34,580 nt of DNA from contig JAYEMF010000113.1 in assembly GCA_034717975.1 (NCBI GenBank), positions 1-34,580 on the forward strand, read 5' to 3'. Both the position numbers and the translations under genes were made by a program. Shown piece by piece: positions 25,021 through 34,580 of the stretch. Numbering within the stretch: the first letter of the stretch is position 1; the number at the start of each line of letters is the position of its first letter. Under the pieces are notes generated by a model, which saw only the letters and a program-made list of their open reading frames with translations, did not search any database and was not told where the DNA came from. The stretch comes from Campylobacterota bacterium (GTDB taxonomy: Bacteria > Campylobacterota > Campylobacteria > Campylobacterales > Sulfurimonadaceae).

Positions 25021-25075
25021 GCTTATTAAATAAATAGATGGTATTATATTCCCATAATACTTGAAAGGCCATACT

Positions 25076-26269
25076 ATGTCTATAGTAAATTCACTAAAAG
25101 AGTACTCACTCCTATTCTTAAATAAACCAATACCAAGCTATGAAAGAGATCTTTTACATACCATCAATCTAAAAAATAAAATTATTGGGATTGTGGGCGC
25201 AAAAGGTGTTGGTAAAACAACGCTTCTTTTGCAGTTCATGAAAAAACAGAACCTGAGTGTTGATGAGATGATGTATATTAGTGTCGACCACCCTTTAATG
25301 AGTTCTACAACAATATTAGATATAGCAAAAGAGTTTTCTTCACTAGGTGGGAAACTATTGGTTTTAGATGAAATACATAATCAGGAAAACTTTGCAAATG
25401 ACTTGAAAACCATATGGGATTTTTTAGATATTAATATTATTTTTTCTGGTTCATCTGCTCTACACCTTGATAGTGCTGATTTAAGCAGAAGAGCTTTGAA
25501 ATATGTATTACCAACTCTCTCTTTTAGAGAATACCTTGAAATGGAGACTTCCCACATATTTGATAAAGTCGATTTGAAAGAGCTATTAAAAAATCATACT
25601 TCAATAGCCTCAGATGTAATGGCAAAAATAAAACCACTTAAATATTTCAAAGAGTATATAGAGTATGGGCACTACCCTTTTTATTTGGAAGACAAAACAA
25701 CATCTAAAATGAAACTAAGTGAAGCTATCACCAAAACAATTGATGTGGATTTACTTAAAATTTATAATATTGATCCAAAAAAACTACGAAATATAAAAAA
25801 GATTTTAACGATGTTGTGCACATCAGTACCTTATAAACCCAATATGAAAAGTTTATCAGATGCTGTAGATGTAGACCCTAAAACACTTTATGTCTATTTA
25901 AATGCGCTAGAGCGGGGCAAAATCATCAGAATGATTTCAGCTCTTGGCAGAGGAGAAAACATCATTAAAAAACCGGAGAAAATATATTTAGATAATCCAA
26001 ATATTTTTTATGCGTTATGTACTTCACCAGACATTGGTACTATTCGGGAGAGTCTGTTTGCATCAAGCATACAAAATGCTTCTTACGCTATTGTCGTTTC
26101 AAAAAAAGGAGATTTTAGAGTCCAAGAAACCTTCACTTTTGAAATTGGTGGTAAAAACAAAACCTATAAACAGATAAAAGATATAGAAAATAGCTTTGTC
26201 GTTTCTGATGATACAGAAATTGGATTTGGCAATAAAATACCGTTATGGTTATTTGGTTTCTTGTATTGA
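25076..26269 (+). CDS. AAA+ ATPase, AAA_14/DUF4143-type
   Basis: Walker A GAKGVGKT, Walker B LVLDEIH, FSGSS, KPEKIYLDN, C-terminal FEIGGKNK...KIPLWLFGFLY; AAAGG RBS before ATG 25076. Confidence 0.9.
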   Translation: MSIVNSLKEYSLLFLNKPIPSYERDLLHTINLKNKIIGIVGAKGVGKTTLLLQFMKKQNLSVDEMMYISVDHPLMSSTTILDIAKEFSSLGGKLLVLDEIHNQENFANDLKTIWDFLDINIIFSGSSALHLDSADLSRRALKYVLPTLSFREYLEMETSHIFDKVDLKELLKNHTSIASDVMAKIKPLKYFKEYIEYGHYPFYLEDKTTSKMKLSEAITKTIDVDLLKIYNIDPKKLRNIKKILTMLCTSVPYKPNMKSLSDAVDVDPKTLYVYLNALERGKIIRMISALGRGENIIKKPEKIYLDNPNIFYALCTSPDIGTIRESLFASSIQNASYAIVVSKKGDFRVQETFTFEIGGKNKTYKQIKDIENSFVVSDDTEIGFGNKIPLWLFGFLY

Positions 26270-26302: not shown

Positions 26303-26430
26303 CTACTTTATATGACTGTTTTTCCCAGTGTAATAATCACGAAGATAATCTATAGCTGTAACATACTAACCTGAGTCATAAAAGGCAATCATTCGCTTAT
26401 TAAATTCCAATTTATCTTTAGCTTTAATAT
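26303..26430 (-). pseudogene. Fic-family C-terminal fragment
   Basis: Translates IKAKDKLEFNKRMIAFYDSG*YVTAIDYLRDYYTGKNSHIK*, versus IKAKDKLEFNKRMIAFYDSGDYASALEYLRDYYIEKNSHIK* in the intact Fic. Confidence 0.92.
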
Positions 26431-26499
26431 ATAATGAAGTCAATAGATCTTAATTTTATCATTTTTTTATGATACTATTTTGGCTTTCTAAACAATCAG

Positions 26500-26515: not shown

Positions 26516-26884
26516 ATGATAGATAAACTTACTGCGAGTCTTAGAGAGCTGGACAGTGTCCTTTTTGCTTATCTCTTCGGATCTCAAGCAACCAAACAGA
26601 CCCATAATAATAGTGATGTGGATGTAGCCGTTTTCATCGCTTCAGACAAACTAGATCTGGACGAACAATTGACCATCCACCATGCATTAAGTAAAGCACT
26701 GCACCAAGAAATTGATCTGGTCATTTTAAACAACCTCAAAAGTTTGACATTGCTGGAAAACATCCTCAAAGATGGTGTTTTACTAAAAGACACTACCAAT
26801 GATCTACGAGAACTGTTTGAATTAAAATCTCATCATGACATTCTTGACTACAAAGCTTTTAAACGGTCTGTCCATGCAGCATAG
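26516..26884 (+). CDS. mntA: MntA-type minimal nucleotidyltransferase antitoxin
   Basis: YLFGSQA....SDVDVAV (GSx10DxD) and EIDLVILN. Confidence 0.9.
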   Translation: MIDKLTASLRELDSVLFAYLFGSQATKQTHNNSDVDVAVFIASDKLDLDEQLTIHHALSKALHQEIDLVILNNLKSLTLLENILKDGVLLKDTTNDLRELFELKSHHDILDYKAFKRSVHAA

Positions 26885-27284
26885 AATCAAAAAGAAGATT
26901 GTCAAACTGCGTAGCAATATTTCACTTTTGGAATCTTATGCACCCGATTGCAAAGAACGCTTTTTAAAAGACCCGATGTATGAAGGTGCACTGCTGCACT
27001 ATCTGTACCTCGTCAGTGATGGCTGCATCGCCTTGGCAGAGATGGTGATCAAAGAAAAAAATCTCGAACAACCGGAAAGTTATGCCGAAGCCATTGACGT
27101 TCTGGGAGACAATGGCGTTATACCAAGAGAATTTGCCTATGATTTCGCTCGCATCGCATCATTTCGAAACTTTCTCGCTCATGATTATGAAAAAATCGAT
27201 CACTTGGTCATTTGTGAACAAGCTTTAGCAAAATTGACTGATATAAAGACCTACCTTCATCATATTGAATCAACGCTCATTTAA
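26874..27284 (+). CDS. hepT: HepT-type HEPN (DUF86) RNase toxin
   Basis: FRNFLAHDY (RxxxxH followed by the modifiable Tyr); start overlaps the end of mntA. Confidence 0.9.
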   Translation: MQHRIKKKIVKLRSNISLLESYAPDCKERFLKDPMYEGALLHYLYLVSDGCIALAEMVIKEKNLEQPESYAEAIDVLGDNGVIPREFAYDFARIASFRNFLAHDYEKIDHLVICEQALAKLTDIKTYLHHIESTLI

Positions 27285-27301
27285 AAGTAAAGTCCTGACC
27301 C
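27281..27301. repeat. 21-bp direct repeat, copy 1 (TTAAAAGTAAAGTCCTGACCC)
   Basis: Identical to 33325-33345; contains the hepT stop codon. Confidence 0.9.
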
Positions 27302-27336: not shown

Positions 27337-28191
27337 TTATTCTTCCCGCTTACCACTACTGATAAACTCCAAAAAGAAGGCCAAAAAGACTGATAGCATC
27401 AATCCGGTTACAAATGCCACGACAACAATCAACTTTTTCTTCGGTTTGATAGGGTAATCCATCACTTCGACTTTACCGATCACTACTGCTTTTTGTATTT
27501 TCAATGGTGAGACGGAGAGTTCTAAATCATTTTTCTTATTTCGTAAACTATAGATTTTATTTGTTGCATCATTCAGTTCAGTCTGCTTTTTCCCGATCTC
27601 AATAGCATAAAGCCCCGCCAAAGCCGCATCTTGTTTGGAGATAGTTAAGAGTTTATTTTCATAATCTTGCATCCGCCCTTCGATCTCTATAATGAGTTGT
27701 ACATTACGATCGATATCTTGTTTGATCAGACTAAGCTTCTCTTTCTGAATGTCCGTATAACTGGCCAGTTCTTTATCTTGAGCCGCCATAACATAGTCGA
27801 TGATCTCTTGCAGCTTCTGCTGTGCCGTAGCATTGTCATACCCCTGTGCGTGTAACACCAAGATATTACTTGTTTTTTTCGGAAGGCTCACTCCGCTGAG
27901 CACAGGCAACTCAATCTTCTTGCCTTTGGCATTCACTTCAAATATGACTTCCAGTTTCTGTTTCAGGTCTGTCAGGTTTTGCACCGGCTTCTTCTCGATC
28001 TGCGCCAGTTCCATAACAGCCTTCACCTCATAAATCGGCTTCACCAGCAGTGCATAAACTACGGCCAGCAAGGTGATCAGTGCCGTCACCACACCTATCA
28101 TCATCTTGCGCTTCATTAATATTCGCCAAAGCTCTCTTAAGTCGATTTTATCTTCTTCTATGTATTGAGATTGCATATTTTGTTCGTTCAT
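27337..28191 (-). CDS. wzz: Wzz-family polysaccharide chain-length regulator
   Basis: EDKIDLRELWRIL, two TM helices, coiled coil, PIKPKKKLIVVVAFVTGL. Confidence 0.88.
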   Translation of the reverse strand: MNEQNMQSQYIEEDKIDLRELWRILMKRKMMIGVVTALITLLAVVYALLVKPIYEVKAVMELAQIEKKPVQNLTDLKQKLEVIFEVNAKGKKIELPVLSGVSLPKKTSNILVLHAQGYDNATAQQKLQEIIDYVMAAQDKELASYTDIQKEKLSLIKQDIDRNVQLIIEIEGRMQDYENKLLTISKQDAALAGLYAIEIGKKQTELNDATNKIYSLRNKKNDLELSVSPLKIQKAVVIGKVEVMDYPIKPKKKLIVVVAFVTGLMLSVFLAFFLEFISSGKREE

Positions 28192-28264: not shown

Positions 28265-29584
28265 CTAGCTCGCCCCGTTACGCAACAGCACCGTCTTAAT
28301 CGTTTTCATCAAGATCACAACATCCATCCAGAGATTCCAGTTTCTTATGTACCAGACATCGAGATAAACCCGTTCCATAAAATCAATATCACTGCGTCCG
28401 CTGACTTGCCATAACCCGGTGATACCTGGCTTAACAGCCAAAACAGTTTCCAGACTCTCACCTATCTTCTCTTTTTCATTAAGCATATAGGGACGCGGTC
28501 CCACAAAACTCATCTCGCCTTTGAAGACATTAAAGATCTGCGGCAGTTCATCGAGTGACGTACGGCGTAGAAAATCACCTATCTTTGTAATACGTGGATC
28601 ATTCTCATACTTATGATATTTGGCATAGTTTTCAACCTCTTCAGGATACTCTTTCAAATAGCTTTCGAGCAGTTCATCGCCACTTTCTGCCATGGTTCTA
28701 AACTTATAGCAGACAAACACTTCATCGTCTTTTCCCATACGCTCCTGTTTAAAAAGGATCGATCCTTCTGGCTCCTCTTTTTTAATCCTGTAAGCGATCA
28801 TAGCCAAAACAGGCAGCAACAGCGGAAAAGCAATAAGAAACATCATGATGTCTGAAATCTGCTTCAACCAGATGCGGTACCGACTCTTCAGACGATTTTG
28901 AAAAACGACAAGATTGGTTCGTGTATTGGAGAGCTCATAGATATGCGACTGCGTCAGATCATACTCATCCATCAGCGGAATAAATACCACCTCATGCTTA
29001 TTTTTTATTTCCTGGTCAATGATACGGCGCAGTTCAGCAGCATCAGCACCTTTGGAGTTTACAAAGATCGTCTTAGGTTCTTTCCCCTTTGCTTCAATAT
29101 AACCCAGATAGTGATTTTCAAATATCTCCTCTTTGATAAACAGATCATCTCCATACACTTTGGCTTCACGCTGCCATAGTCCCATACTAAAAAACTTTTT
29201 CTTGGCAATATTCTTAAATAGCGGTATCAAAAAAACCATAAATATAAAACTGAAAATAATAACTGCCCGTGAAAAATCCTCAATACTCTTTGTCATGGCC
29301 AGATACGCCATTACAATCAAAAAGGCAAAGCTCAGCCCTTTCAGAACATTTCGACTCTCATGCCAGAAGTCATACCGTCGAGTATAAATACCCTCATACG
29401 CCAGCATGCTCAGCGTCACCACATAAATAAGTGAGAAACCAAGATAATCCGCTAATGATTGGGAATGTGTAACGATAAAATAGTCATCAAATGTCATTCG
29501 TAATTCATATGCAATAAAAATAGAAAGGAAAACAGCCATGAAATCTAGTAGTAACAATAAAATTTTTGATATTGTCTCTTTCAC
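28265..29584 (-). CDS. Undecaprenyl-phosphate sugar phosphotransferase (WbaP/WcaJ family), copy B
   Basis: Four N-terminal TM helices; [38 protein letters not shown]; minus-strand TATAAT at 29610-29615. Confidence 0.93.
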
Positions 29585-30372: not shown

Positions 30373-31551
30373 TTAATACAAAAATCCAAACAACCAGAGT
30401 GGAATTTTATTTTTAAATCCAATTTCAATATTGTCTGCCACTACGAACGAATCCGGTATGTTTTTTATCTGCTCAAATCCTTTATTTCGACCACCAACTT
30501 CAAAAACATATCTATCATTAACTATAAAATCACCGACATTACTATACCTGACATCATGTGATTGCTTGACTTGTGACACAAAAAAACTCTCTCTTAAACT
30601 TCCGCTATTTTTGTTAGAACAAAGTACATTATATAAATTTATATTTTCAAGATATATTTTGTCGGGCTTATTTAGCAGCTTTTTATTTTTAAAATTTCCA
30701 CCAATAATCTCAATCAAGTTGGCTTTTTGCAAATAATAAAAATAGGAGTAAAGTGTATTGCGACTTATTTCACAACGCGAAGCAAGGTTTTGAATGTTTA
30801 ACTCTACAGGAACACTACTGCACAGCAGATGCAACAGCTTTCTTATTGTGTTGATCTTGTGTGCATCGACGTTGTATATGGAAGCCACTTCACTGTCAAG
30901 TATAATGTTAATAACCTCATTTAACCGTAAATCATACCCCAATTCACCCTCAGTAAAAAATGGGTAAGCCCCAAAAGCTTTATACTGTTCAAAATACTCT
31001 AAAGGCTTAAACTGTTTCTTGATTGTTTGCGCAATATCCTGGTGATTACCCAAAATCTCCTCAAGTGTATACGGTTGTAGGTCAATTCCATGTTTTATCG
31101 AAACAAACTCTCTAAATGAGAGCGAACCCAACTCATAAAAAAGTGCTCGTCTACTTAGGTCAACTTTTGCATTTTCTATCTCTAATGCTGATGAACCGGA
31201 AAAGATGACTCTAATATTTACAAAATCATAGATGGTTTTTAGTTCCAATGCAAAATCATCTGCCTTGTGTATCTCGTCAACTATAAGCAACTCTCCACCA
31301 AATGCACTGAACTCTATTGCAATTTCACTCAGTGTTTTCGTGATGTTGTCAGCACTGATGTAAAGCATTTTAGAAGTAGAAAGATTATAGTTTTGAGCAA
31401 TTTGCCTAAGAAGTACAGTCTTTCCAACCCCTCTTTGACCTAAAACACCTATTAATTTCGATTTGAAATCAATAATATTATATAAATAACGCGTAAAGGC
31501 AGGAGTAGGAAGAGAAAAATAGAGATTAGATAATTCTATAAGTTTTTGCAT
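30373..31551 (-). CDS. AAA+ ATPase, AAA_14/DUF4143-type (paralog of 25076-26269)
   Basis: GQRGVGKT, IVDEIH, FSGSS, KPDKIYLEN, KIPLWLFGFLY. Confidence 0.9.
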   Translation of the reverse strand: MQKLIELSNLYFSLPTPAFTRYLYNIIDFKSKLIGVLGQRGVGKTVLLRQIAQNYNLSTSKMLYISADNITKTLSEIAIEFSAFGGELLIVDEIHKADDFALELKTIYDFVNIRVIFSGSSALEIENAKVDLSRRALFYELGSLSFREFVSIKHGIDLQPYTLEEILGNHQDIAQTIKKQFKPLEYFEQYKAFGAYPFFTEGELGYDLRLNEVINIILDSEVASIYNVDAHKINTIRKLLHLLCSSVPVELNIQNLASRCEISRNTLYSYFYYLQKANLIEIIGGNFKNKKLLNKPDKIYLENINLYNVLCSNKNSGSLRESFFVSQVKQSHDVRYSNVGDFIVNDRYVFEVGGRNKGFEQIKNIPDSFVVADNIEIGFKNKIPLWLFGFLY

Positions 31552-31653
31552 TATTCACCTTTTCAATGCATTGAAAAGAATAATATCATATATTTTAAAT
31601 ATATTGAAAGAAATTTGCCAGAACTCTCTATTTCACTATAAAAAAAAGCCCTC

Positions 31654-32283
31654 CTATGTTCGGCTTAATTTTTTTTCAAAAAAACTTCGCATATCTTCTT
31701 TACTTATTACCTCTTCTGGTTCCAAATATAAAATATTATCATCTTCTATATCATCAATATAAATCAAAGCGACTGCAAACAATTTAAAGTTGATTCCCTC
31801 AATAATATGTAAACTTGCGTCAAAGATCTGCTTTAAACTCATTCCATTTTTCACTAAGCTGTAAATATCATAATAATCTCTATACTTTGCTCTTAAAAAT
31901 AGGACATTTACTTTCATTGCCGCAATCTGGTTTAAATTTGCCAAATTGAATTTTTCCGGTTTCCGAGGCCTTAAAAACTTCCATTTTGCATTAAAAAAAG
32001 TCACCTTCACACCATTAAGCAGCAGATCAATCTGTTCATCGGTTTGATTTAATATCTCTTTTATTTCAAACACTTTCAAATACTCAAAAATTTCTTTTTT
32101 ATCGAAATTGTCTTCATAAGTAAAAAAGTGCAAATCCTCGCTCTTTCTGTGGCAAATATGCAGGGTAAGTGCGGAGCCACCAACTAAAACATACTTCTCT
32201 AAAAAAGGAGAAGTCTCAATTAAAGTCAACAGCAGTTTTTTAGTATCAGGAAGCAAGCAATCTAAGTTTTTCAAGTCTCTCAT
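31654..32283 (-). CDS. AbiEii/AbiGii-family nucleotidyltransferase toxin
   Basis: LVGGSAL..HRKSEDLHFF, IAAMK, RAKYRDYYDIY; AAAGGAGG RBS before ATG 32283, inside the upstream gene. Confidence 0.88.
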   Translation of the reverse strand: MRDLKNLDCLLPDTKKLLLTLIETSPFLEKYVLVGGSALTLHICHRKSEDLHFFTYEDNFDKKEIFEYLKVFEIKEILNQTDEQIDLLLNGVKVTFFNAKWKFLRPRKPEKFNLANLNQIAAMKVNVLFLRAKYRDYYDIYSLVKNGMSLKQIFDASLHIIEGINFKLFAVALIYIDDIEDDNILYLEPEEVISKEDMRSFFEKKLSRT

Positions 32284-33289
32284 TTTTGCCTCCTTTAAAA
32301 AACCCACTTTCTACATTCATTGACAAGAACACTCTGGCAATCATTAAATTTAGTTTTAGAAATCTTTTATCATTTTTTACACTTTTTTCCCAAACTCTTT
32401 TGACAGCTCTTTTTCCAAAAAGTTTAAAAACATTTTCCATATCGACAAAGTCACCATATTTAAGCACATACTCAATCAAGATAGCTTCACCTGCTTCCAT
32501 ATAGGTCACATCTTTTGCATAACTCCAAAAAATGCCTTTATCCCTGAGTTTTTCAAACAGTTTGACTTTTTCTCTGTAAATTTTATAGGACTTTGAGATA
32601 GCAACATTCGATAAATGCAAGTAGTGCGCTATCTCTGTCTGTTTATAGCCATCTTTAAGTGCATGCACAATGGCAAACTCTCTTGAGTAAGTATGAAAAT
32701 AATGTTCCAAGCTACTTTTCTTTATTTCGATTAATACTTTTGTATCGACATCGACCTTTGAATTATATAGCTTATTGATAGCGACATGCTCTTCATCACT
32801 AAACATAACCGTAAAATCGATCTTATCCATCAACTCAAAATGCAGCATTGGCAATTTGACATTATAACTGCTCATAGACCAAAAAAACTTCCCAATCCTA
32901 TCTACAACACCGGCCTTTACGGGATTGTACTCAATATATCGTATCAAGGTGTCAAGGTAAACTTCATCATAGACATACCATGATTTAAATCGCCCTTGCC
33001 ATAAAGGCCCGACTCTTTTGTACTTTTTATTAAAATAGATGGTGTATCTTGCATTGATAGATTTCATGATGTCAGATAAGTTTTCTCTGCTTGTCTTCAA
33101 AAGTAGATGATAGTGATTATCCATCAAACAAAACGAATAAATTTCAAAGCCATAGGTGAGTGCTGATTCTTGCATATAACCTAAAAACACCTCATGATCT
33201 TCCTGATCAATAAAGATGTCTCGTCTCTCCACCCCTCGATTAACAACATGGTAAAACCCAGGATAATCCAATCTTGTTTCTCTTGCCAT
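32246..33289 (-). CDS. HUH Y1 transposase (RAYT-type) fused to an HTH and a C-terminal antitoxin-like domain
   Basis: MARETR..PGFYHVVNRG, HUH motif MDNHYHLL, GPLWQGRFKS, catalytic YIEYNPVKAG; then GYKQTEIAHYL; then GIFWSY...LIEYVLKYGD...FGKRAVKRVW. Confidence 0.9.
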   Translation of the reverse strand: MARETRLDYPGFYHVVNRGVERRDIFIDQEDHEVFLGYMQESALTYGFEIYSFCLMDNHYHLLLKTSRENLSDIMKSINARYTIYFNKKYKRVGPLWQGRFKSWYVYDEVYLDTLIRYIEYNPVKAGVVDRIGKFFWSMSSYNVKLPMLHFELMDKIDFTVMFSDEEHVAINKLYNSKVDVDTKVLIEIKKSSLEHYFHTYSREFAIVHALKDGYKQTEIAHYLHLSNVAISKSYKIYREKVKLFEKLRDKGIFWSYAKDVTYMEAGEAILIEYVLKYGDFVDMENVFKLFGKRAVKRVWEKSVKNDKRFLKLNLMIARVFLSMNVESGFFKGGKNERLEKLRLLAS

Positions 33290-33307
33290 CTTTTACGCCT
33301 TTGCTTA

Positions 33308-33335
33308 TTCTAACCAATAAATTATTAAAAGTAAA
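33308..33335 (-). promoter_or_regulatory. Putative promoter of the transposase-abiEii operon
   Basis: Minus strand TTTACT-17 nt-TAGAAT; the -35-like hexamer lies within the 21-bp repeat. Confidence 0.45.
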
Positions 33336-33346
33336 GTCCTGACCCC
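33325..33346. repeat. 21-bp direct repeat, copy 2 (minus strand GGGGTCAGGACTTTACTTTTAA)
   Basis: Identical core to 27281-27301; sits between the truncated fic and the transposase start. Confidence 0.9.
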
Positions 33347-33732
33347 TAGTCTTTCGTTCCTCCTATGTTGACATTGCCATCGCGAAATACACCCCACCGT
33401 AAAGCCTCTTCGCGGGCCACTTCTGCATGCAGTGCCAAAAGAGTTTGTTTGTTCAACTGAAAGTTCTCCTGCTCCAGCATGGCAAAAAGTAAATCGACAC
33501 TTCTATTTTGATTGAGAATCTGCTGCTCATCGCTTAGTTTATGTCCACCAACGGTAATCCCTTCCAAAAGTGTTTCAACCTCAGGGTAAGTCATGGCGTT
33601 ACCCTCAAGCGCAGCAGTGTTATAGATAAAGTCAACTTTGTCTTTTTTCGCTAAAAAAGTATAACGTTCCTTGTCTTTGGTAAAATCCAAATGACTTATA
33701 TCGATACTATTGATCTCTGCTGCATTAGGCAT
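33346..33732 (-). pseudogene. Truncated Fic (N-terminal half only)
   Basis: About 22 differences over 124 aligned residues against the intact Fic (hand count); homology stops at NIGGT, followed by KD-stop running into the GGGGTCAG motif. Confidence 0.9.
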
Positions 33733-33792: not shown

Positions 33793-34580
33793 TCAGCTCG
33801 CCCCTTTTCTCAAGAGAACCGTTTTAAGTGTTTTCAGCAAAATGACAAAATCAAGCCAGAGATTCCAATTTCTAATGTACCAGACATCCATCTCAACACG
33901 CTCTTTAAAGTCAACATCACTGCGCCCACTTACCTGCCAGAGTCCGGTTATTCCAGGTTTCACTGTCAAAACAGTTCCAAGCCTATCTGAAATTTGATCT
34001 TTTTCATCAAGCATGTAAGGTCGTGGTCCAACAAAACTCATCTCTCCCTTGAGGACATTAAAAATCTGCGGCAGTTCATCGAGCGACGTCTTGCGTAAAA
34101 ACTTTCCAATTTTTGTAACCCGTGGATCATTTTCATACTTATGATATTTTTCGTAATTTACAACTTCTTCAGGATGATCTTTCAAATAGCTTTGCAACAT
34201 AGCATCACTATCACACTTCATTGTTCTGAACTTATAACAGACAAATGGCACTTCATTTTTACCCATACGCTCTTGATTAAACAGAACTGGGCTGTCTGCT
34301 TCATCTTTTTTGATCAAAAGGGCTATAAAACTTAAAATAGGAACTAAAAATGGCAGTAATATAATGGCCAAAAGAAAATCGGAAAAATATTTCAAGACGG
34401 TGCGATAACGACTCTTCAACCTGTTTTGAAACACTATAAGATTATTCCGGGTATTGGAGAGTTCATAGATCTGTGACTGGGTTAAATCATAGTCATCAAT
34501 CAGAGGGATAAAAATCACTTCATGTTTTTGATCGATCTCTTGTGAAATCATTTCACGCAGCTCTTCTGCCGTGGAACCAG
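33793..34580 (-). CDS. Undecaprenyl-phosphate sugar phosphotransferase (WbaP/WcaJ family), copy A; 5' end outside the window
   Basis: Frame stays open to the edge ([13 protein letters not shown] aligns with [13 protein letters not shown] of copy B); same C-terminal motifs. Confidence 0.93.

Follow-up and report, generated by a model that had tools for sequence, protein, structure and literature searches.

Why does a gene for a transposase-type Y1 HUH nuclease end in an antitoxin-like tail and run straight into a gene for a toxin-like nucleotidyltransferase (NTase)? This arrangement is found on the minus strand of a 34,580-nucleotide (nt) stretch of DNA, contig JAYEMF010000113.1 of assembly GCA_034717975.1 (Sulfurimonadaceae), which we call the window. 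An earlier inspection of the letters alone, here named the sequence-only reading, had proposed that a RAYT-type transposase is fused to an antitoxin-like domain and coupled to an AbiEii toxin. Our analysis leans, with somewhat more confidence than doubt, towards a two-gene toxin-antitoxin-like module of the AbiE/MenAT (DUF1814) superfamily, whose partner protein is a composite of a TIRYT-type nuclease, a helix-turn-helix (HTH) and a DUF6922 domain. It is reasonable to regard the fusion protein as the partner and regulator of the NTase, because its tail is of the DUF6922 type, free-standing relatives of that tail stand upstream of NTase genes, and the NTase gene is conserved alongside the fusion. 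This assignment is based on gene order and domain architecture.

The 347-amino-acid (aa) open reading frame (ORF) was present as first described, at 32246..33289 on the minus strand. It has an intact Y1 HUH nuclease (NHYH at residues 58-61, YIEYNP at residues 118-123), an HTH and a tail of about 100 aa (FWSY..LIEYVLKYGD..FG..VW); the positions of these parts and of all other features are collected in Table 1. Pfam Y1_Tnp matched residues 13-121 (E 7.3e-17). The NCBIfam model REP_Tyr_transpos reached 77.3 bits (E 1e-21), just below its cut-off of 80, and transpos_IS200 reached 21.9 bits with a cut-off of 55. E. coli TnpA-REP (PDB 4ER8) gave a weak profile match to the Y1 core (E 0.012). The HTH is supported as well, weakly by score. 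All of its Pfam matches lay below cut-off, with HTH_23 in 10 of 20 homologues (best E 0.001), GerE in 8, Sigma70_r4 in 4 and HTH_28 in 4, and PDB profile matches of this part to the HTH of ComA were weak (E 0.6-0.9).

Using the whole fusion protein as query, we obtained 1539 proteins at E<=0.001. The best 120 of these are 341-375 aa long, with a coverage of 97-100% and an identity of 54-66%, and the few with a named source come from Sulfurimonas, Sulfurospirillum, Hydrogenimonas and Arcobacteraceae. Conservation across these 120 proteins is good in the Y1, HTH and C-terminal parts and poor in the linker; mean identity to the window protein was 30% for the linker and 58-64% for the other three parts. 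The catalytic residues are almost invariant in the same set (H59 in 118 of 120, H61 and Y118 in all 120). No indels were seen where Logan contigs from four DNA runs of one study covered the fusion-NTase stretch, and one of the contigs extends over 31600-33351; since the source sample may be among these runs, the contigs are not independent support. Since full-length homologues cover 97-100% of the protein and the contigs are free of indels, the fusion gene is a conserved family, and neither a chance product nor a one-off nor an artefact. The possibility that homologues always encode the two parts as separate ORFs, or that the assembly had joined them, which the sequence-only reading had held against itself, is thereby set aside. 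The genome of the window has one full copy of the fusion gene, and one copy per genome is found in the family.

A phmmer search with residues 245-347 against 1.84 billion representatives gave 127 matches, many of them free-standing proteins of 100-123 aa that align end to end. Of 39 proteins retrieved with a profile of the free-standing proteins, 10 hold a precomputed PF21956.2 annotation. When the fused family was aligned with these 10 PF21956 proteins, hhalign returned 99.8% (E 1.3e-27) over 110 columns and residues 240-347. The nearest ESM Atlas clusters consist of proteins of about 104 aa, with DUF6922 on 56% of the members of the best cluster. On these profile comparisons the tail is a DUF6922-family domain, which also exists as a free-standing protein of about 110 aa; this is the family named in the sequence-only reading. 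A PF21956 scan over 201 genomes of the window's class returned the window's own weak match alone and nothing in the other 200. The predicted structure of the domain is confident (pLDDT 90.6) and had no relative in the PDB (Foldseek best E 8; VIA-align best Z 4.4 among 48,161 chains), which does not show a new fold.

The start of the NTase gene sits 38 nt inside the 3' end of the fusion gene. Both the start codon (ATG 32283) and the ribosome-binding site (AGGAGG, 32289-32294) lie within the fusion gene, as had been claimed. The longest frame begins at GTG 32307 and would give 217 aa, but every homologue aligns from ATG 32283, which gives 209 aa. The 38-nt overlap recurs in related loci (e.g. 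5007/5044 in L001, L005 and L011). Pfam AbiEii matched the ORF with E 3.1e-11 and 44.1 bits, above the cut-off of 22.5, and nine PADLOC AbiEii models matched it (best E 3.4e-8), the AbiEii models being matched only in part. In the PDB, the predicted structure (pLDDT 92.5) was matched by Foldseek to JHP933 (E 1.5e-6), MenT1 (3.1e-5 to 4.6e-4) and MenT4 (1.5e-4), and more weakly to MenT3/TglT. The NTase profile run against PDB sequences gave nothing beyond a chance serpin match.

NTase homologues are 56-75% identical, and 71 near-full sequences show little or no variation in the motif H-R-x-S-E-D-L-D-F-F, in RDYYD and in the Lys of AAMKVN. The spacing of S-x-D-x-D appears equal to that implied by the S78A/D82A mutants in the TglT PDB entries, which is a likeness of spacing and not an alignment. 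The window copy is the only one with His at the second Asp position, and Asp is found in all 70 other near-full homologues. No alternative letter was seen at this codon in the contigs of the same four runs. Because His replaces an Asp kept in 70 of 70 homologues, the window NTase is, judged by its sequence, probably catalytically impaired or inactive, and the toxin is probably dead in this genome.

A search for the same fusion with an AbiEii-type neighbour, as the sequence-only reading had suggested, gave 16 genome loci that match most or all of the fusion protein. In 11 of them (L001, L002, L004, L005, L007, L008, L010, L011, L013, L015 and L016) the NTase gene starts before the fusion gene has ended. 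Locus L003 terminates at the fusion gene, L012 has just 359 nt downstream with no NTase detected there, and L009 and L014 carry damaged copies. In the metagenomes, the NTase gene was directly downstream in 76 of 80 loci, of which 37 are fused, 35 are free-standing and 4 are cut at the 5' end; these 80 loci were fetched with close free-standing members and represent close relatives only. The pairing extends further. In another phylum, that of the genome with locus L006, we found the DUF6922-like domain in 25 of 401 sampled genomes, nearly always in small ORFs. We compared the 20 of these loci, distant free-standing homologues, in which the ORF was identified and is followed by 450 nt or more; an AbiEii-like gene (187-223 aa, YLAGGTAL..GHR.S.DLDFF) was directly downstream in 16 and upstream in 1. 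The position of such small proteins in front of AbiEii genes, as stated in the sequence-only reading, was thus found among both close and distant free-standing homologues.

Among 401 sampled genomes of the window's own phylum, 6 have the domain. Because of this count, the varied contexts and the frequent vicinity of other toxin-antitoxin genes, the module is accessory. Among plasmids, 28 records matched the Y1 part alone and none reached a coverage of at least 80% of the fusion protein. With the patterns used, viral contigs gave nothing for the NTase profile or for a resolvase fusion described below.

The DUF6922-like domain is not tied to the Y1 nuclease. Loci L093 and L095 have it behind a DUF6088/AbiEi_4 winged-helix N-terminus (AbiEi_4 23.1 bits and DUF6088 26.9 bits, each with a cut-off of 25), upstream of the same NTase. 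Protein P0259 (192 aa) combines it with an XRE HTH_3 domain, and P0251 (313 aa) with a serine resolvase and HTH_7. In a maximum-likelihood tree of the C-terminal domain and NTase (63 loci), the fused or non-fused state changes at least 11 times, and 8 of these changes are forced by supported branches. Therefore, the Y1-HTH half has been repeatedly lost or gained, and the core pair works without the TIRYT half. By its domain combinations, the DUF6922-like domain is a portable module, joined to a winged helix, an XRE HTH, a serine resolvase or a Y1 HUH nuclease. A DUF6922-like domain was also observed at the N-terminus of a PhnA/YjdM-domain protein (L160:2495-3391), with no NTase gene adjoining.

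Which kind of Y1 enzyme was joined to this domain? The sequence-only reading had called it RAYT-type, and the intact Y1 HUH core agrees with that name, whereas the REP association does not hold. A REP-associated RAYT was rejected: HUH and Y---NP are present, but there are no hairpins and no dispersed repeats, and the score lies below the REP_Tyr_transpos cut-off. An IS200/IS605 TnpA was rejected as well, given the score noted above, the single full copy in the genome and the lack of hairpins. According to the accessible text of Di Nocera 2013 (PMC3733652), TIRYTs belong to TIRtrons: they resemble RAYT genes, and the terminal inverted repeats on either side of them have GGGGWSAS in common. In the accessible text of Quentin 2018 (PMC6006769) they form TnpA-Y1 subclass 2.1, with Y---NP, an extension resembling HTH_23, HTH_28 or DnaA_C, and no REP hairpins. 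In its motifs, the N-terminal half of the fusion fits this TIRYT, or subclass 2.1, type, with an HTH of weak score.

A terminal-repeat-like box, GGGTCAGGACTTTACTTTTAA, precedes the fusion gene and overlaps the -35 element of a promoter-like site. One more G, at 33346, extends it to GGGGTCAG, which fits or nearly fits the GGGGWSAS of TIRYT repeats as given in the accessible text of PMC3733652. Allowing up to 2 mismatches, 34 of 39 fused loci have the pattern GGGTCAG-N3-TTTACT in the 150 nt before the start, compared with 2 of 46 non-Y1 loci (background rate 0.015 per 225 nt). GGGTC and TTACT are unchanged in each of 20 aligned upstream regions; 9 of the 20 have GGGGTC and the rest mostly AGGGTC, and a TATAAT-like hexamer is conserved at the same promoter spacing. 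The 13 specified bases of the box have two exact copies only in the 2.52-Mb genome, where 0.08 are expected, and the other copy also lies in the window. Neither strand of the box folded better as single-stranded DNA (ssDNA) than its shuffles (z -0.14 to -1.67), with no hairpins, and the 8-mer GGGTCAGG is not enriched in the genome (61 found, 53 expected).

The right end looks different. In the window, no right repeat rose above shuffled controls within 300 nt of the NTase stop. A repeat follows the NTase gene in 3 of 29 fused loci (inverted in 1, direct in 2), and a looser motif scan found a box copy within 200 nt after the NTase gene in 5 of 33 fused loci, with about 0.5 expected. The genome of the window also has one of the paralogues of about 250 aa that consist of Y1 and HTH only; their upstream boxes are related (GGGTCAGG or GGGTGTCAGGCAC). 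Such TIRYT-only paralogues have an inverted copy of 15-30 nt just past the gene in 17 of 33 loci, with shuffled controls reaching a maximum of 13-19 nt. The fused module looks like half of a TIRtron, in which the left repeat and promoter were kept and the right end was lost at fusion. Mobility of the fused module is not supported, because the right repeat is usually missing. One locus, L148:180-2117, shows a tandem partial duplication of the 5' part of the fusion gene together with the box, with boxes at 180, 253 and 973; this triple box suggests recombination at or near the box.

In the mechanism that we propose for the toxin-antitoxin-like module, the DUF6922 domain would bind the NTase and hold it inactive, either by sequestration or by induced autophosphorylation. 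Antitoxin-induced autophosphorylation has been shown for MenT1, MenT3 and AbiEii, according to the accessible text of PMC11375011 and bioRxiv 10.64898/2026.01.19.700257. By analogy, it is a plausible mode of neutralisation for this NTase because Ser48 is invariant, and Ser48 of S-E-D-L-D would be the obvious candidate for the phospho-acceptor. The TIRYT-HTH half would bind the GGGGTCAG..TTTACT box over the -35 element and autoregulate the operon, a role that falls to the winged-helix half of the AbiEi protein in classical AbiE systems. Since its HUH and Tyr residues are conserved, the nuclease probably still acts on DNA. The most likely origin of the fusion is the insertion of a TIRtron in front of a DUF6922-NTase pair, with loss of the TIRtron's stop codon and right repeat. 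In the genome of the window, an inactive NTase would leave the fusion protein as an orphan regulator or antitoxin.

Several observations weigh against this interpretation. Locus L006 has an intact fusion gene without an NTase gene, and the NTase is missing in 4 of the 80 metagenome loci. Pfam DUF6922 (PF21956) scored under its cut-off of 27 on residues 251-299 of the fusion protein (15.6 bits, E 0.011), and its matches were also below cut-off in 7 of 20 fused and 33 of 65 free-standing homologues (best 26.7 bits). Pfam, PADLOC, Foldseek and VIA detected no likeness of the domain to AbiEi or to solved antitoxins, and the Pfam and PADLOC AbiEi (COG5340-type) models had no match in the fusion protein. 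The DxD metal-binding motif is present across the NTase family and lost in the window copy, and with D52H the module may not work in this genome. No same-strand gene follows the second copy of the box, which is left without an established role. Finally, the strict conservation of HUH and Tyr would be unexpected if the TIRYT half were a mere DNA-binding module.

It is also conceivable that the HUH half is a working sensor or switch. Phage or plasmid intermediates in ssDNA form, or GGGGTCAG..TTTAC exposed at a fork, would be attacked by Tyr118, and this attack would tie the antitoxin covalently to DNA or change its shape, free the NTase and halt translation. We regard such a switch as a long shot. 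If true, it would be a toxin-antitoxin or abortive-infection system triggered directly by ssDNA chemistry, and the resolvase and XRE fusions would be parallel wirings of other DNA events to one toxin. More generally, if the nuclease activity controls the toxin, single-strand DNA processing would be linked to translation shut-off.

We compared the module with known systems as described in the accessible parts of the cited sources. It shares with AbiE (PMC3985639; bioRxiv 10.64898/2026.01.19.700257) a bicistronic order in which the partner gene precedes that of a DUF1814-type NTase, and a partner with a DNA-binding half and a toxin-directed half; the L093/L095 variant even has an N-terminus resembling AbiEi_4/DUF6088. 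Unlike in AbiE, the toxin-directed half is the DUF6922 helical domain, the DNA-binding half is a Y1 HUH nuclease with an HTH, and the NTase is short, with 209 aa. MenAT1 (PDB 8AN5; PMC10435456; PMC11375011) has an NTase of similar size and fold, and an S/T-x-D-x-D active-site loop whose conserved hydroxyl residue is a possible phospho-acceptor, but its partner is unrelated in sequence and fold searches. JHP933 of Helicobacter pylori (PDB 4O8S/4OK0), the best fold match, comes from the same phylum, although its identity to the window NTase is just 16-18%.

Besides the Y---NP core, the HTH_23/HTH_28-like domain, the lack of REP hairpins and the GGGGWSAS-like repeat (PMC3733652, PMC6006769), the likeness to TIRYTs and TIRtrons (RAYT group 1) includes low copy number and patchy distribution. 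The fusion differs from them in the added DUF6922 domain and NTase gene and in the right inverted repeat, which is missing in most fused loci. The accessible text of PMC3733652 and PMC6006769 mentions no toxin partner or DUF6922 domain, and a term search in two supplementary files of Quentin 2018 gave nothing. Tn3-family transposition modules (PMC7157771) also link a toxin-antitoxin pair to a recombinase gene, physically and perhaps in regulation, and P0251, with its resolvase and DUF6922 domain, resembles this. In Tn3 the genes stand apart and mobility of the transposon has been demonstrated, whereas here an antitoxin-like domain is fused to the Y1 enzyme.

DUF1814 toxins, TIRYTs and modular antitoxins are known kinds; their combination and the DUF6922-NTase pairing appear to be undescribed. 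Our literature searches gave no paper that names DUF6922, no fusion of a Y1 or HUH enzyme with an antitoxin and no TIRYT with a toxin partner, and no fusion is mentioned in the accessible text of PMC5581495. DUF6922, an uncharacterised Pfam family, would gain a probable role as the cognate partner, probably the antitoxin, of a widespread branch of short AbiEii/MenT-like NTases. For the TIRYT or subclass 2.1 proteins, whose function is open, the module would provide a concrete testable setting with a 21-nt box, a protein partner and a growth read-out.

The surroundings of the module bear on its history. From high to low coordinates, the minus strand carries the second sugar transferase, a truncated Fic gene, the box, the fusion gene, the NTase gene, an AAA_14 ATPase gene, a full Fic gene, a sugar transferase gene, a Wzz-like gene and the second box. 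Defence-type genes thus lie inside a polysaccharide locus, as seen from the sugar-transferase paralogues that bracket the region and the Wzz-like gene. The MNT (Polbeta NTase)/HepT pair, both AAA_14 ATPases (the first being PDC-S01) and Fic make up a small defence-type island. Across the other loci the neighbours of the module are varied and often include polysaccharide-synthesis genes, other toxin-antitoxin pairs and AAA_14/DUF4143 or ATPase_2/DUF234 ATPases; glycosyltransferase or sugar-nucleotide genes flank it in L004, L007, L010, L011 and L015.

Table 1. Features of the fusion-NTase locus and its surroundings in the window.
Feature	Position	Strand	Remarks
Y1 HUH nuclease core, residues 1-140	32870..33289	-	H59/H61; catalytic Tyr118 in Y---NP
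Linker, residues 141-195	32705..32869	-	poorly conserved
Helix-turn-helix, residues 196-244, LuxR/GerE / HTH_23-like	32558..32704	-	sub-threshold Pfam matches in homologues
DUF6922-family all-helical domain, residues 245-347	32249..32557	-	putative NTase-binding (antitoxin) part
AbiEii/MenT-like NTase, 209 aa	31654..32283	-	Pfam, PADLOC and fold matches
CAC codon, His52, second Asp position of NTase S-x-D-x-D	32128..32130	-	D-L-H for D-x-D
Left terminal-repeat-like box GGGTCAGGACTTTACTTTTAA	33325..33345	-	36-56 nt upstream of fusion start; overlaps operon promoter -35
Promoter-like site TTTACT-17 nt-TAGAAT	33307..33335	-	consensus scan 9/12; putative function
Second exact copy of the 21-nt box, direct orientation	27281..27301	-	4.35 kb beyond NTase stop
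AAA_14/DUF4143 ATPase directly downstream of NTase	30373..31551	-	Pfam AAA_14 E 5.3e-22; PADLOC PDC-S01 candidate E 8.5e-29
Full-length Fic, 242 aa	29641-30369	-	PADLOC PDC-S04/SoFic
Fic N-terminal fragment, aa 9-133	33346-33732	-	82% identical; stops within 10 nt of GGGGTCAG box
Fic C-terminal remnant, aa 199-242	26306-26437	-	80%; 6.9 kb from N-terminal fragment
Two Bac_transf sugar-transferase paralogues	28265-29584, 33793-34578	-	71% identical over aa 179-439; bracket region
Wzz-like gene	27337-28191		
MNT (Polbeta NTase)/HepT toxin-antitoxin pair	26516-27284	+	just past second 21-nt box
Second AAA_14/DUF4143 ATPase	25061-26269	+	beyond second 21-nt box

The N-terminal Fic fragment and the C-terminal remnant look like parts of one gene that inserted DNA has divided, with the full-length paralogue inside the insert. 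In a relative (L207; G805:C299, 1467-3043), a full-length Fic gene overlaps a 252-aa TIRYT-only gene, and the two are bracketed by inverted GGGTCAGGACAT(A/C)AATATAAGTTT repeats; this adds another example of a toxin-type gene that travels with a TIRYT. The window's own genome holds two tandem copies of GGGTCAGGACATAAGTATAAGTCTTTACCTC, 157 nt apart (C35:20409 and C35:20566), of the repeat type that flanks this Fic-TIRYT pair. A search for the empty site in relatives by way of the HepT and Fic flanks gave nothing usable, with HepT in 1 of 40 other genomes of the family and short same-genus contigs (L212, L213). The split Fic gene, the L207 pair and the second box keep the reading as a mobile cassette alive and do not establish it.

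That cassette could be an active and addictive transposon, in which the Y1 enzyme moves the GGGGTCAG-bounded DNA and the DUF6922-NTase cargo punishes loss of the element. There is precedent in the toxin-antitoxin genes of Tn3 transposition modules (accessible text of PMC7157771), and the patchy distribution in 6 of 401 genomes with varied contexts, the conserved Y1 catalytic residues and the excess of boxes shortly past the NTase gene (5 of 33 fused loci) would all be expected of it. The window itself has two exact 21-nt boxes 6 kb apart with a Fic gene truncated within 10 nt of the upstream one, but the second box is direct rather than inverted, and distant. L207 has its gene pair between inverted boxes, yet 26 of 29 fused loci have no matching repeat after the NTase. 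We think that such a transposon is improbable, as there is one full copy per genome, hairpin ends were not found at the box, neither the plasmid nor the viral searches described above gave a counterpart, and the autonomous mobility of TIRYT/RAYT genes is itself unproven in the accessible text of PMC6006769. The copy number and the scarcity of repeats after the NTase also leave the addictive element envisaged by the sequence-only reading weak.

Alternatively, the two genes may not form a toxin-antitoxin pair. The NTase could be a regulated enzyme that shares a nucleic-acid substrate with the HUH nuclease, for instance by tailing or tagging ssDNA or RNA ends produced by the nuclease, with DUF6922 as a docking or specificity subunit and not an inhibitor. 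The free-standing DUF6922-NTase pair is, however, common without any nuclease, and the order, size and overlap of the genes are typical for toxin-antitoxin pairs. Translational coupling and strict co-occurrence fit any obligate pair, and a conserved HUH active site would suit a two-subunit enzyme, as would an NTase that is more conserved (56-75% identity) than its partner (54-66%). While the best fold match, JHP933, is a putative NTase whose PDB title lacks the word toxin, the family and fold of the NTase match proven toxins (MenT, AbiEii), toxin-antitoxin and defence genes often adjoin, and the point change in a catalytic residue of the window copy has the appearance of an eroding toxin. We consider the two-subunit enzyme unlikely. 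For the window copy, it is conceivable, if doubtful, that we are looking at a decaying relic with a dead toxin, whose fusion gene is a leftover or a regulator of neighbours. D52H is unique in 71 sequences and seen in the contigs of the four runs, and the locus is a mosaic produced by recombination, in which a Fic gene is split, sugar-transferase genes are duplicated and remnants occur. Still, both frames are intact and of full length, the promoter box and ribosome-binding site are intact, and one substitution need not end all activity. A relic would concern the window copy alone and does not conflict with the toxin-antitoxin-like reading of the family.

The ATPase gene directly downstream of the NTase recurs elsewhere. 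We found an AAA_14 homologue in 5 of 23 fused loci of at least 4 kb, two of which are identical copies, and in none of the 11 non-Y1 loci of that size. The AAA_14 ATPase is a recurrent neighbour and possibly associated with the module. In L003, L007, L114 and L120, the GGGTCAG..TTTACT box also precedes AAA_14/DUF4143 or ATPase_2/DUF234 genes, as if it were the reused head of a cassette. In the window, the stretch that separates the NTase gene from the AAA_14 gene holds a perfect 20-nt palindrome, CTTTTCAATGCATTGAAAAG, at 31559-31578. The palindrome is rich in A and T, does not resemble a terminator and may be an operator for the ATPase gene.

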